Positions 40,467 to 63,990 of a DNA stretch of 64,000 nucleotides are shown here, in pieces (the first letter of the stretch is position 1; each line of letters starts with the position of its first letter). Under the pieces are notes generated by a model, which was not told the origin of the DNA, did no database searches, and worked only from the letters and a program-made list of their open reading frames with translations. The translations under genes and the position numbers were made by a program. Source of the DNA: Eledone cirrhosa (lineage: Eukaryota); the NCBI GenBank assembly GCA_964016885.1, contig CAXHJY010001389.1, positions 113,372 through 177,371 on the forward strand. The letters are read 5' to 3'.

Positions 40467-40520
40467 CTTTACTTGCCCTGATGAGTCCTTAATAGGACGA
40501 AACATTGTTGGCTAATAAAG
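40467..40520 (+). ncRNA. Type-I hammerhead ribozyme (PLE pLTR remnant)
   Basis: ctttacttgcc-CTGATGA-GTCCT taat AGGAC-GAAA-CATTG-TT-ggctaataaag. Stem I pairs 9/11, stem II is 5 bp, and AATAAA overlaps the 3' arm. Confidence 0.85.
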
Positions 40521-40804
40521 ACTTTTGATGTATTGAAGGCTTCTTTGGTTTATTTTCATAATATATATATATATATATATATATATATATATATATATAT
40601 ATATGTGTGTGTGTGTGTAATATATATATTACACACACACACATATATATATTTATATATATTTACATATACGTATGTATATAGCCATGCATTTATACAT
40701 TTGTATATATACATGCATTTATATTTAAGTGTGTAAGGTTATATATATATATATAAATGAAGTAACAGGAGGCTGGACTGGTGTAAATCCTTGAAAGGTT
40801 TATT

Positions 40805-40862
40805 ATACTATGATCATTTCAATGACCGGGTTCCATATGAATTCGGTGATATCATCAGGTAT
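40805..40862 (-). ncRNA. Type-I hammerhead, family B
   Basis: Reverse-complement copy of 41762-41819. Confidence 0.8.
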
Positions 40863-41761
40863 TGGAATATAAAAAGGAATATGTAAAAAGCCATGGGTCC
40901 GAAAAACCATGAGTCCGAGAAACCAGAGACAGAGAGGGCGGCTGACCAACTAGCTTCACAGCCAGCCACCCTCAAAGTGTTGGCAACCGAAAACTACCAG
41001 TGAATATCTGGTAAGGGGGCGCGTTAATAAACCCCTAATGTGTGATTTAAAAGTATTCGTGGTATAGACGATGGCCTGTCGAAATTGTGGGGTTCCCGCT
41101 AGCGATCCCGGGGCCATTGTTAACTACGTTCCTAGAGTACTCGGAGAAATTAATTTCCATTTCTTTCGCTGGACGATACCACTCGAGACTGGCTGACTCA
41201 CGGTGGTGGGTGTGCTGGCTGGGACTCCCAATCGAAATCTTTACTCTATATCCCATCCTAATATCTTATCGAGTTAAACATTTTTTTCATACAAGACTCT
41301 CTCCGTAAGCTCGTTAAATAAATAAATCTCGCTACCTCTATTTTTCAATTTACCATTTTGCAATATAATATTTTTAATTTAATTTATTTCATCCTATAAC
41401 TGGCAACATAAGTTTAGCGTTCCAATCTTTGGTTCACACATTAGACCATACAGACACCCACTATAGATTCTTTGGGTAGCATTTTTTTTTTCGCGGCATT
41501 TTCTAACATGAATGTAGTTTGACCCTTACACTACACTTCTTTCTCCCTTTCTTTCCTCCCCCTCTTCTTTGACGGAGTGGTGGTAGTACATGATAGGCCT
41601 GCGCCCCCTTACCAGATATTCACTGGTAGTCTTCGGTTGCCAACACTTTGAGGGTGGCTGGCTGTGAAGCTAGTTGGTCAGCCGCTCACTCTGTCTCTGG
41701 TTTCTCGGACTCATGGCTTTTCGGACCCATGGCTTTTTACATATTCCTTTGTTATATTCCA

Positions 41762-41819
41762 ATACCTGATGATATCACCGGATTCATATGGAACCCGGTC
41801 ATTGAAATGATCATAGTAT
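41762..41819 (+). ncRNA. Type-I hammerhead, family B
   Basis: ATAC-CTGATGA-[tatcACCGGattcatatggaacCCGGTcatt]-GAAA-TGATCA-TA-GTAT. Palindromic stem-loop III (UGAUCA), AUA cleavage site, AATAAA follows. Confidence 0.82.
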
Positions 41820-42667
41820 AATAAACGTTTCAAGGATTTACACCAGTCCAGCCTCCTGTTATTTCATTTATAATTAACTCCGTATTCGCACCACCAACTA
41901 CACAAACGAAGATGGGTGAACTGCATTGCGTTGAGTACTCTTCACAATATTACACCAGGATTGACCATACGGAATGACCAGTTCTATCCAGTGGTGAACC
42001 AACAAACCTTAAGATATATATATATATATATATATATATATATATATATATATATATATATATATATATTTACATTTATATTGTACATTTTAACCATTCT
42101 GCTCTGATGATACAGTGGTCACAGCATTTGATAATTGAGTTTTGCAAATAGTTGTAAATTTGCACGTAGCATAACTAGGCTGTACAACCACCGTGGAAAC
42201 ATTTGTAAGCACACGGAATAAATTACCTTTTTATGATGTCTACCTGTTATTATTCATTCTTCATATATATATATATATATATATATATAACCTTACACAC
42301 TTAAATATAAATGCATGTATATATACAAATGTATAGATGCATAGCTATATACATACGTATATGTATGTATGTATGTAGATTTATATATATAGATATGTAT
42401 GTATGTAGATTTAAATATATATATATATATATATATATATATATATAAATATATATATATATATATATATTTCGTTTCTGAATTTGTTTAGCAAGATTCT
42501 TTATCTGAAAACCTGCGTTGAAACCGATATTGTTATACTTTGGGAGGGTCATGTTGCCAATAAGAAACACACGCACTTCAGTTTATTATAATAAATTTAT
42601 AAATTTATAAATTTATAAATTTCCAGTTGGTTGCTTGGTTCCACAACCAGATGATTGTTTATATATT

Positions 42668-60031: not shown

Positions 60032-60302
60032 TATATTTAGAAACACACAGATACATGCGGACACACACATATATACATGAATGCATCCGCACCCAACTTA
60101 CTCATACTTCTACCCTTCTTCACCACCTCTTCTGCGGCCTCGATATGAATACCCCCTCCGCCTCTGTGGTATTTTCTTCGTGGTTATAAGAGGCTTAGCT
60201 CTGTTTCTCGACCGTTATATCGCGTGACTATCTCCCCCTCCGCCTTTTGGGATTCTTTCTCACGTCGTGTAGAAGCGTTCTTGAGACTAGTAAAATGAGG
60301 TA

Positions 60303-60392
60303 TCCTCTTGATAAGTCGGCAGACCTCGCAGGGACTCTATATCCTTATGATATATTGTTTTTGTTTATGCCACGAAACTACGTAGTCGAGGA
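60303..60392 (+). ncRNA. Type-I hammerhead with U3-A8 core variant and extended stem II
   Basis: UCCUC-UUGAUAA-GUcGGCA...(59-nt domain II)...UGCCAC-GAAA-CUACGUAG-UC-GAGGA. GUC cleavage site and palindrome CUACGUAG. Lies in the island 60032-60462. Confidence 0.75.
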
Positions 60393-60462
60393 ATTTAGGA
60401 GCAGTTTAGGTATGATACATTTTATTACTAATTATATCTAAATGTTTCTTCTCTCTTCATTA

Positions 60463-62420
60463 TGTATATATATATATGTATATATATATATATATATATG
60501 TGTATATATATATATATGTATATATATATGTATATATTTATATACATGTATATATTTATATATATATATATATGTATATATATATATATATATATGTATA
60601 TATTTATATATATATATATATGTATATATTTATATATATATATGTATATATTTATATATATATATATATATTGTATATATATATATATATGTATATATTT
60701 ATATATATATATATATATGTATATATATATATATATGTATATATTTATATATATATATATATGTATATATATAATATATATGTATATATTTATATATATA
60801 TATATATGTATATATATATATGTATATATTTATATATATATATATATGTATATATATATATATATATATATGTATATATATATGTATATATATATATGTA
60901 TATATGTATATATATATATGTATATATATATATGTACATATATATATGTATATATATATGTATATATATATATATATATATGTATATATGTATATATATA
61001 TATGTATATATATATATGTATATATATATATATATATATATATGTATATATATATGTTAATATATTATATATATGTATATATATATGTATATATATATAT
61101 ATATATGTATATATATATGTATATAGATATATATATATGTATGTATATATATATATATATATATGTATATATATATATATGTATATATATATGTATATAT
61201 ATATGTATATATATATGTATATATATATATATGTATATATATATGTATATATATATGTATATATATATGTATATATATATGTATATATATATATATATAT
61301 GTATATATGTATATATATATATATATATGTATATATATATATATATGTATATATTTATATATATATATATATGTATATATATATATATGTATATATTTAT
61401 ATATATATATATGTATATATATATATATATATATATGTATATATATATGTATATATATATATGTATATATATATGTGTATAATATATATATGTATATATA
61501 TATGTATATATATATATATGTATATATATATATGTATATATATATATGTATATATATATATGTATATATATATGTATATATATATATGTATATATATATA
61601 TATATATATATATATATATATATATATATATATATATATATATATATATATATATATATATGTATATATATATATATATGTATATATATATATATATATA
61701 TGTATATATATATATATATATATGTATATATATATATATATATATATATACATATATATATATATTATACATATATATATATATAATACATATATATATA
61801 TATATATATATATATATATATATATATATATATATATATATATATATATATATACATATATATATATACATATATATATACATATATATATATATACATA
61901 TATATATATACATATATATATATACATATATATATATATACATATATATATACATATATATATATATATGTATATATATATATATATATATATGTATATA
62001 TATATATATGTATATATATATATATATATATATGTATATATATATATATGTATATATATATGTATATATATATATGTATATATATATGTATATATATATA
62101 TATATATGTATATTTATTATATATATATATATGTATATATTTATATATATATATATATGTATATATATATATATATATGTATATATTTATATATATATAT
62201 ATATGTATATATATATATATGTATATATTTTATATATATATATATGTATATATATATATATATATATATATGTATATATATATGTATATATATATATGTA
62301 TATATATATATGTATATATATATATTGTATATATATATGTATATATATATATATGTATATATGTATATATATATATGTATATATATATATGTATATATAT
62401 ATGTATATATATATGTATAT
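60463..62420. repeat. Interrupted (TA)n field
   Basis: TATG type with a TACA-type block at about 61745-61960. Confidence 0.97.
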
Positions 62421-63990
62421 AGATCTCCTTAATGAAAGCTCCATAGACCTCATCATGTACTCTCGTTATGTAGACGATATCAATATAGTTATAAGAACAC
62501 CCCCACTAGAGAGCACTAACAAGTTTGATTTAGAACGTAGCACGATGGAAAGCATCCAGCAGATAGCTAATTCCCATACACCAGAGTATAACTGTAACTA
62601 TAGACTTCCCTTCCAAACACCCTAACAATAGACTACCTGTATTAGACACAGAACTCTGGATTAACACTATAGACGAGAGAGCCCAAATTCTCCACTCACA
62701 CTATGCTAAACCCATGGCCTCCAAATACCTGATACTCAAAAACTCAGCAATGTCCAGTAGTGCTAAGTTTAATATTCTGATCGCAGATTTGGTACGAGTG
62801 ATGAAGAATGTGTCCAGCATGTGCGACCCAACAGAAATGGAAGGACACATCCAACACTTCATCAACCGCATGCAGTTCTCTGGCTACAACCAAAGAGACA
62901 GAGTCAGAGTATACGAAGGAGCCATGGAAAAAGTATAAGACCCTCATAGAACTGGACATGAAAGGAATTTGCCCACTATACAGGAGCAAATCATGGAATA
63001 GCTTAGATAGGGCTAGACATAAGATAGGGAAGGCCACATCATGGTTACGACAACCAGAGATATCAGAGTGTGTTTGTGGACGCCACCCCTGGAGGGAAAT
63101 TAGCTAACCAGTGTAGAAAGGCCCTGAGAAAGACCCACTTAAAAATAAAGGTGGTAGAAAAGCCAGGAACCACCATAAAATCCCTGATCAGCAAAACCTA
63201 CCCTTTTAAGAAAACCCACTGTACCAATAGGAAATGTATCATATGTAAGGTGAACCCCCGGATAAACTGTAAAACTAGAAACGTAGTCTATAGCATAAGA
63301 TGTACAGAGGGTACTTGCAGAAACACGACAACAACATACATAGGTGAGACAGCTCGTAGCATAGGTGAAAGGATAGACCAACACTGGGGGGAACTAAAAG
63401 GACGAAAAAACGGGTCAGTACTATACGAACATGCTAGACAACATCATGACGGTAACATAGACAACATAGAAATTAGAATAATATCTAAACATAGGAATGA
63501 CCCAGCAGATAGGCAAATCAGAGAGGCCAGTGAAATAGAAATTAGAAGACCAAAGCTAAACAGAAAGAATGAGTGGAACAACAACAACACCCAAACAAAC
63601 AACACTGACCTAAGAGAAGTATAAATAAATAAGTAAATTAAATTAAATAAAAAAAAAAAAAAAAAAATAAAAAAAATAAAAAAAAAATAAAATAAGATAA
63701 ATAAATACATACACAAGCACATAAACACACACTAGTCACCCAGCAGACACAACACTATACACACTAGTCACACATCACACATAACACTATACACACACGC
63801 AAGCGCATGCGCAAAGAAGACAAATTAAAATAAGATAAACAAACAAGCAAATAAATAAATAAATATATAGACAGACTGAACAAAAAAAAAAAAAAAATGG
63901 CGTAGACATACAACACAACAGGAGGAACAATGAATATAACACCACTGACGATGTTGCAGATGTGCAACGAAAGATTTATGTAAACTATAT
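62421..63990 (+). mobile_element. 5'-truncated Penelope-like element, diverged relative of family A
   Basis: [12 protein letters not shown]...HFINRMQFSGY...CTNRKCIIC...NVVYSIRC...YIGETARSIGERIDQH...RQIREA, with frameshifts. The 3' UTR contains a hammerhead. Confidence 0.93.
63942..63981 (+). ncRNA. Type-I hammerhead in the PLE 3' UTR
   Basis: cCA-CUGACGA-U-GUUGCA gaug UGCAAC-GAAA-GAUU-UA-UG. Perfect 6-bp stem II, weak stem I. Confidence 0.72.

Follow-up and report, generated by a model that had tools for sequence, protein, structure and literature searches.

The question addressed here is why so many hammerhead ribozyme motifs lie between the (TA)n tracts of a single stretch of octopus DNA, and to what kind of element they belong. 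The stretch, which we refer to as the window, comprises 64,000 nucleotides from Eledone cirrhosa (contig CAXHJY010001389.1 of assembly GCA_964016885.1, positions 113,372 to 177,371 of the forward strand) and is the final 64 kb of a 177-kb unplaced contig within a 3.0-Gb assembly. Our analysis confirmed that the hammerhead motifs are real and that they mark the ends of eight families of Penelope-like elements (PLEs) together with non-coding offshoots. We give a probability of about 0.85 to the reading that the region is a pile-up of these eight families and their non-coding derivatives, which likely landed in (TA)n by preference of their GIY-YIG endonuclease (EN).

Hammerhead motifs in the window

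The analysis was based on a structure scan that looked for the core CUGANGA, or its U3-A8 variant UUGANAA, together with a folded stem II, GAAA, stem III, UH and stem I. The scan yielded 12 motifs with an intact type I hammerhead fold at 40,400-64,000, among them one of family H (63945, plus strand) in which stem I is just 2 bp long. A looser pattern scan and a homology pull added four decayed motifs (cores at 46673 and 47211 on the minus strand and at 49189 and ~50448 on the plus strand). All sixteen motifs claimed in the initial annotation can thus be recognised, but only 12 of them keep core and stems. A stricter early scan gave only 2 motifs, as it disallowed the base after A9 and bulges in helix II. 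It should be noted that the descriptor was drafted after these motifs were known; the blind genome sample presented below serves as the independent test. The shuffle control that had been called for was nonetheless clear: when the 16,080 bases outside microsatellites were dinucleotide-shuffled block by block 300 times, the mean was 0.04 motifs and the maximum 1, against the 12 observed. No motif was found by the same scan in the reversed sequence of the motif region, nor at the scan threshold in the 9.7 kb of the window upstream of it.

The motifs fall into eight families, in agreement with the earlier estimate of about eight: A (four motifs in two insertions), B (four, including decayed ones, plus one related motif), C, D (two motifs in one insertion), E, F, G and H. 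As A (twice) and D are inverted pairs, the 12 intact motifs trace to about nine insertion units. Most islands had been described as ribozyme-bearing, and 11 of the 15 in the region do carry an intact or decayed motif. The further claim that every PLE pseudo-long terminal repeat (pLTR) carries one stands if decayed copies are counted, but three of the four family-B pLTR copies are mutated in the core or in stem II. Rfam misses these motifs, as had been suggested of standard annotation: among the best 150 of 258 rows, the Rfam listing of the window was dominated by spurious miRNA matches to (TA)n, and its sole hammerhead row was a sub-threshold HH9 match at 40462-40532 (29.1 bits against a gathering score of 52).

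Families that end autonomous PLEs

Families B, C, E, F and H are represented in the window by the following features (RT stands for reverse transcriptase, ORF for open reading frame and UTR for untranslated region).

40235-40560, plus strand: family C, Hydra-like PLE represented by its 3′ end; hammerhead 40475-40512, with the predicted cleavage site following 40509
42289-46816, minus strand: family B, near full-length PLE with a frameshifted RT and GIY-YIG ORF; tail 42289-42414
42669-42709, minus strand: hammerhead of the family-B 3′ pLTR, intact
~46636-46677, minus strand: hammerhead of the family-B 5′ pLTR, decayed
46958-49461, minus strand: second family-B copy, 5′-truncated; inverted pLTR 49145-49383; decayed hammerheads ~47174-47215 (minus) and 49185-49226 (plus)
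50444-50485, plus strand: decayed B-related hammerhead with an altered core and G at the cleavage position
51689-52099, minus strand: family E, an old Hydra-like PLE of which the 3′ end is present; hammerhead 51850-51908, with a tail at 51691-51789
57515-58434, minus strand: family F, Hydra-like PLE represented by the end of its 3′ UTR; hammerhead 57557-57623
62425-63990, plus strand: family H, 5′-truncated, B-related PLE; EN ORF 63028-63624, hammerhead 63943-63980 with weakened stems I and III

For families A, C, D, E, F and G, the 30 best genomic matches were pulled, with longer stretches for some. RT followed by a C-terminal GIY-YIG EN lies upstream of the hammerhead in families B, C, D, E, F and H (EN only for E). 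The four apparently ORF-less islands C, D, E and F are element ends, as other copies of each continue upstream into PLE ORFs. The initial annotation had taken the ORF-less islands to be families of their own, and this does not hold in general, only A and G being ORF-less. Six families are thus 3′ ends of autonomous PLEs, with C, E and F being Hydra-like and B, D and H Neptune/Nematis-like by their motifs. For family C, the 3′ UTR is about 1.6 kb long and RT and EN ORFs lie upstream in three copies (L193, L194 and L196), and for family E, an upstream Hydra-type EN was found in 2 of the 60 loci searched. The region upstream of C, E and F presents a linker of the Hydra type (CxCX5C), no CCHH, and CxxC and CxH near the C-terminus; among these three, DKT was seen in F only, and RWK reads RWT in F. 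B and H carry, in the window, a CX4CxxC linker and a CCHH GIY-YIG EN, as D does in its upstream ORF. Family B has a Pfam GIY-YIG match (E=1.2e-4), and H shares 59% EN identity with B. The more specific labels, Nematis-like for B and H and Neptune-like for D, were given by eye against a published alignment.

Over the genome, the exact motif occurs 6,161 times in family G, 5,926 times in D, 4,579 times in A and, for the variant of E present in the window, 237 times, with 0 in reversed controls. A 2,846-bp tandem containing family C was considered as a PLE unit and rejected, as it has no frame of at least 250 codons and is a host tandem array with tRNA-like sequence. Within that array, a family-C stub has been amplified (L181; G000:C4:11822968-11829000).

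TA tracts and insertion anatomy

Several of the insertions lie in one extended tract.

53108-62421, no strand: degenerate (TA)n field in which insertions of A, F, G and H lie

The pattern met in these PLE families is a pLTR or partial tandem with an inverted 5′ copy and a one-sided tail; head-to-head inversion with a one-sided tail, a known PLE pattern (PMC8557442), is seen in all eight families. From the core to the first TA tract, two discrete distances (in nt) were found in each of five families: 108/253 for A, 88/189 for C, 108/~210 for E, ~100/193 for F and 162/331 for G. These bimodal distances match the two RT start sites reported in PMC11167929, from which such pairs of 3′ ends would be expected. 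Where units of A or of G meet in tandem, no TA tract is present, and TA should thus be considered as the target rather than as part of the element. In the blind genome sample, (TA)n lies no more than 300 nt downstream of 51 of the 57 motifs, as compared to 23% of random positions, which bears out the earlier proposal that (TA)n is a shared landing site for many families.

Retrozyme-like units A and G

The two families that are ORF-less are represented as follows.

40752-42015, plus strand: family A, first insertion, part of a 1,852-nt ORF-less tandem unit
40752-41022, minus strand: inverted arm of this insertion, hammerhead 40805-40862
41022-41872, plus strand: direct arm of this insertion, head-to-head, hammerhead 41762-41819, one-sided tail to 42015
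55185-55684, no strand: family A, second insertion, short inverted pair; hammerheads 55249-55306 (minus) and 55421-55478 (plus), one-sided tail
60019-60478, plus strand: family G, partial unit 60098-60467 and inverted fragment 60021-60098; U3-A8 hammerhead 60303-60392

Family G forms a 595-nt head-to-tail unit, found in tandem (580-610 nt) at 16 of 29 loci, with a longest frame of 80 codons; its predicted circle folds at -176.8 kcal/mol (z -4.8, 40 shuffles). Family A has a period of 1,852 nt and a longest frame of 91 codons, with a two-motif tandem in one of four long loci. No PLE protein was found on the element when the sequence upstream of A and that upstream of a G relative were searched. 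As ORF-less tandem units, A and G resemble non-LTR retrozymes. Of the 23 public runs listed for family G, none of them recorded as RNA, contigs of 4 runs of unrecorded kind were examined and showed the unit. In two of these runs, it is one 620-nt contig that repeats after 593 bases, which fits a circle and a collapsed genomic tandem equally and was thus not used as evidence.

Two further observations touch these units. Another hammerhead family (L355:4589-5769) presents two same-strand motifs 563 nt apart and an inverted copy, as a further retrozyme-like unit, and a second U3-A8 family, with a short helix II, occurs six times in the DNA examined (L199:6892-7303, L229, L249, L256).

Family D palindromic stubs

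Family D is found in the window as a single short palindrome.

51222-51663, no strand: family D, stub of a Neptune-like PLE, forming a palindrome centred at 51415 and tailed on a single side; minus-strand hammerhead 51340-51378, plus-strand hammerhead 51452-51490

Both arms begin 44 nt upstream of the core, at a putative transcription start. When 50 D loci were taken in order along contig C1, 40 were found to start -34 to -48 from the core, while 7 arms reach further than 120 nt and the interval from -49 to -120 holds no start. This count omits 8 loci of the same span that had been pulled earlier (6 long, 2 short) and one that was not pulled; with the 8 added, 42 of 58 begin at the one site. 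Long D copies carry a TATA box 31 nt upstream of the boundary in two diverged subfamilies, and two CCAAT boxes further up. As 42 of 58 loci share a start 31 nt below TATA, the stubs probably represent not random truncations but copies of the RNA leader that spans promoter to hammerhead; the boundary is likely the transcription start, and the stubs would be mRNA leaders copied from a 5′-proximal RT start site. Promoters in pLTRs have been reported (PMC2377424, PMC3846280). The two arms differ by 0.9% within a copy and by 3.1% between copies. Peaks of 5′ ends were also seen in short copies of E and F, that of F being biased by the query. Fixed 5′ ends for A and C were rejected as an artefact of comparison solely with the window's copy.

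Two other explanations of the stubs should be considered. Family D could be a self-copying palindromic element resembling a miniature inverted-repeat transposable element (MITE), with a hammerhead in each arm and inherited as a unit. The 1,091 genomic palindromes that centre on the D site speak for this, as does the fact that most of the 30 best BLAST matches had exactly the window's junction. This initial impression of a fixed junction was, however, rejected as a query effect, as the query itself included the junction: the first 50 junctions, taken without this bias, present about a dozen forms, with the window's form found twice. Moreover, the tail is found on either arm within one subfamily, though never on both, and the haplotypes of stubs match those of long copies across subfamilies and interleave with them, which suggests that palindromes of one junction type are scattered among the long copies. 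We thus regard a MITE-like unit as highly improbable. Alternatively, the 5′ hot spot could reflect stalling or fold-back of the RT at an RNA hairpin instead of a transcription start, while everything else in the favored reading stands. An 8-bp hairpin, noted by eye, does start exactly at -44, and PMC3846280 links palindromes at inverted junctions to self-priming. Yet a polymerase moving from 3′ to 5′ on the RNA would reach the other side of the hairpin first, and the ends trail off downstream of -44, with none between -49 and -120; the TATA box is kept at -31 in two diverged subfamilies, and the commonest junction overlap, a 5-nt odd palindrome, is too tight for a hairpin loop. Stalling is thus unlikely, though it deserves to be kept in mind.

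As a side observation, a frequent element of about 190 nt with an internal palindrome and TA on both sides was not flagged by the hammerhead scan (L181:3640-3830, also L005, L011 and L354). It is possibly the stub of a hammerhead-less PLE.

Ribozyme fold, stem III and covariation

The conserved core (CUGANGA or U3-A8), GAAA, UH and an open helix I are present in 12 of the 16 motifs. Stem III is a perfect palindrome in five of the eight families (A, D, E, F and G), which accounts for all five palindromes named in the initial annotation; in C it is odd-length and imperfect, and in B and H it is non-palindromic. For the five families, the self-duplex of stem III is predicted at -3.2 to -12.9 kcal/mol, with no predicted hairpin. 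With G-U allowed, 21 of the 28 multi-copy families in all DNA examined have a palindromic stem III, although the scan favours palindromes. Folding models make dimeric cleavage plausible for the five palindromic families. Low in vitro activity has been reported for minimal motifs, with some acting as dimers; cleavage was reported for one of nine Xenopus retrozyme dimers, and protein-assisted cleavage was dispensable for insertion in one PLE (PMC11167929). The 10.1-11.1 pair is G-C in B, C, E, G and H and U.U or A-U in A, D and F, and an extra base follows A9 in A, B, D and H. The hammerheads of A and G appear minimal, with a long helix II that reaches up to 59 nt in G. The U3-A8 core of family G is a variant known from Schistosoma PLEs (PMC4209133).

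Stem covariation, which had been proposed as a check, was found between related families. For B and H, 29 sequences out of 42 homology matches, those registrable over the whole motif, were aligned: 90.8% of cells pair, and 27 cells are changed on both sides as compared to 9.9 in shuffles, a number reached in 0 of 500 shuffles. Between G and a relative of 74% identity, four stem III bases are swapped and the palindrome is kept in both. Within family E, in contrast, there were zero compensatory pairs among 30 copies. As 6 of these 30 have also lost G12, inserted copies decay neutrally, and selection on the fold would act in the active lineages.

Genome-wide abundance

To place the window within the genome, an identical scan was applied to a blind sample of 59 evenly spaced 10-kb stretches (60 were chosen, one being nonexistent). 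It returned 57 motifs as compared to 3.3 in shuffles, or 51 as compared to 0.9 when stem I is required to have at least 4 bp. Extrapolation gives 254,000-273,000 motifs for the genome (bootstrap range 173,000-374,000). Motif count follows TA content in the sample (rho 0.60). Per non-TA kb, the window holds 0.74 motifs and the sample 0.10, and overall the window is about 5-fold denser. One of the 59 stretches holds 5 motifs per 10 kb, the window's own rate; the window is thus at the top of the genome-wide distribution and not unique. All DNA examined, which is enriched by homology pulls, contains 44 sequence families. Published counts are about 2,000-9,000 minimal motifs per genome (PMC4209133), with a coral reported at more than 6,000, a mussel at about 5,000 and the axolotl (28.21 Gb) at 126,247; the comparison with these is rough, as descriptors differ and the present scan is looser.

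A wider picture, to which we give somewhat short of even odds, would be that the genome holds about a quarter-million motifs (one per 11-12 kb, about 20 times the axolotl density) in at least 40 families, that many of these arose by an undescribed leader-copy route with twin-cDNA palindromes, and that the 595-nt U3-A8 retrozyme, with more than 6,000 copies, is an abundant circular RNA.

A proposed route and the evidence against it

The motifs, their family structure, the ORFs of B, C, D, E, F and H, the ORF-less state of A and G, the inversions, the tails and the adjacency to TA are observed. A route that would produce them is as follows. The element protein would nick TA-rich DNA, and RT would begin at one of two fixed sites below the hammerhead, so that each family would have 3′ ends of two lengths. 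A pair of cDNAs, one primed on each strand, would then join at their 3′ ends and form the inverted pairs. In family D, most inserts would be copies of no more than the RNA leader, which begins at the pLTR transcription start, includes the hammerhead and ends with the tail, with the twin cDNAs joined via a short odd palindrome; lacking the upstream promoter, such stubs would be dead on arrival. PLE proteins may mobilise A and G in trans, with multimeric or circular RNA as the source. Where stem III is palindromic, the hammerheads would depend chiefly on dimer formation or on the help of protein for cleavage, and uncleaved RNA would be the template for insertion.

Several points weigh against this reading and should be considered. 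Cleavage and expression are predictions from sequence. Single motifs fold no better than shuffles (z -0.14 to -1.21), except for C (-2.67), and A, D and F deviate from the published consensus by their non-G-C base at 10.1-11.1. The covariation between B and H reflects few events between related lineages, and their relatedness inflates the test; counted by pairs, the four that changed on both sides are not above shuffles (3.3). The missing compensatory change and the loss of G12 in family E belong here as well. No autonomous partner was found for A or G. For family D, the extra G expected from a copied cap is rare at the junctions, too rare to claim, and a clear TATA box at the 5′ hot spot is found only in this family, being variable in E and absent in F, C and A. 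Finally, the clade names follow from motifs and not from a tree.

Other explanations of the region as a whole fare less well. Were the motifs chance matches or assembly artefacts in AT-rich DNA, their low single-motif z-scores would be expected, yet nothing further fits: the shuffles, the thousands of exact copies on chromosomes with none in reversed controls, and the presence of family G in independent public runs already refute this. The ORF-less islands could all be independent, non-autonomous retrozyme families spreading by means of RNA of their own. This holds for G, in tandem at 16 of 29 loci, and for A, with its period of 1,852 nt, and the recurrent 5′ ends of short D, E and F copies would agree with it. 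It is, however, contradicted by the upstream PLE ORFs in other copies of C, D, E and F, and already refuted for C and F as defined families, while the D stubs share haplotypes with long copies across subfamilies and lack the upstream TATA and CCAAT boxes; as an explanation of all islands, it is very unlikely. That the elements give rise to TA tracts or lengthen them once inserted, or simply persist in them with no targeting, we hold to be improbable, albeit less so. The long degenerate TA fields clearly grew by slippage, and the window is at the end of a small unplaced contig, where repeats accumulate. Nonetheless, near-identical young copies abut TA at fixed end positions, the tandem junctions of the units are free of TA, and Hydra and Naiad elements, octopus ones included, are listed with a (TA)n preference.

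Surroundings of the motif region

The initial ~30 kb of the window are a 31-bp satellite (1646-30554, about 945 copies, 91% matches, with a higher-order pattern), preceded by a 69-bp tandem repeat at 11-318 in which each unit has a minus-strand CUGAAGA core without a hammerhead fold. A third B-related PLE fragment (35698-36583), without a pLTR, adjoins hAT-type transposase fragments at 37400-38805 and 39857-40105 (Dimer_Tnp_hAT match 39860-40105). An inverted copy of the family-B tail-like segment 42271-42399 is found at 40630-40758, and the pair brackets the family-A insertion. A short interspersed repeat at 52853-53020, frequent among the fetched loci, we take to be SINE-like (short interspersed nuclear element). 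Another small contig (G000:C1656, L122) repeats window positions 51689-53108 at 92-100% identity, and may be a segmental duplicate or an uncollapsed haplotype.

Relation to known systems

Hammerheads in PLEs, (TA)n targeting and an octopus Hydra element with both have already been published, and neither a new ribozyme class nor a new element class is revealed here. What is new is the scale, the two retrozyme-like units and the promoter-linked stub class. The motifs resemble the minimal PLE hammerheads described by Cervera and de la Pena (2014, PMC4209133) in being of type I, with a short helix I, a long helix II and a palindromic helix III, and also in the many families per genome, the mostly single motifs from truncated PLEs, the close opposite-strand pairs and the U3-A8 variant. 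They differ in number, with about 250,000 here by the looser scan, as well as in the U.U or A-U at the base of helix II in some families and in the length of helix II in G.

The C-terminal EN without CCHH, CxCX5C, DKT, CxxC/CxH, the hammerhead and (TA)n are shared with the Hydra clade (Craig et al. 2021, PMC8557442), in the supplement of which Hydra-1_Obim is given as an octopus member with a hammerhead and a (TA)n preference; the window's Hydra-type proteins are, by eye, like it. C, E and F are nonetheless distinct families, placed by motifs, with other hammerhead sequences, 3′ UTRs of about 1-1.6 kb and more families co-occurring. With Neptune/Nematis PLEs, the shared features are the CX2-5CxxC linker, the CCHH endonuclease, the pLTR-ORF-pLTR order, the inverted 5′ copy and the one-sided tail, whereas tails are 55-170 nt here as compared to the 30-40 bp described, and D is found mostly as promoter-to-tail stubs.

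Non-LTR retrozymes (Cervera and de la Pena 2020, PMC7229834; Li, Clavereau and Pollet 2026, 10.64898/2026.07.22.740005) are likewise ORF-less head-to-tail units with one type I hammerhead each and, as reported there, a stable predicted circle (here for G) and a proposed origin from and mobilisation by PLEs. G is, however, a minimal U3-A8 type and not canonical, the 1,852 nt of A exceed the reported 51-972 bp, and A and G, seen here in DNA, form short arrays that are dispersed, with inversions and tails of the PLE type in (TA)n. In PAc Poseidon of Anolis (Frangieh et al. 2024, PMC11167929), the optional tail is accounted for by two internal sites of RT start that lie below the hammerhead, the target is AT-rich, and both strands are nicked and extended, as would be the case here. 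Those data were obtained in vitro, whereas ours come from end distributions, and the leader-copy reading of D would extend them. Our literature search revealed no hammerhead census of cephalopods and no leader-copy model, although the 2014, 2020 and 2026 supplements and an octopus repeat library may hold some of the families; in the available part of PMC13282606, the word 'ribozyme' does not occur.

These results suggest that few natural sources are as rich in hammerhead variants as an octopus genome of the Eledone type, in which Rfam misses dozens of families, and such variants would be useful for testing which forms of core and helix II still cleave. The sharp, promoter-linked 5′ end of family D offers a genomic test of how PLEs make inverted, tailed insertions, beyond what in vitro work on the two start sites provides. 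Annotation is concerned as well, as short palindromes and islands that lie by the thousand in TA tracts, and which might be filed as MITEs, SINEs or unknown repeats, are the ends of PLEs.

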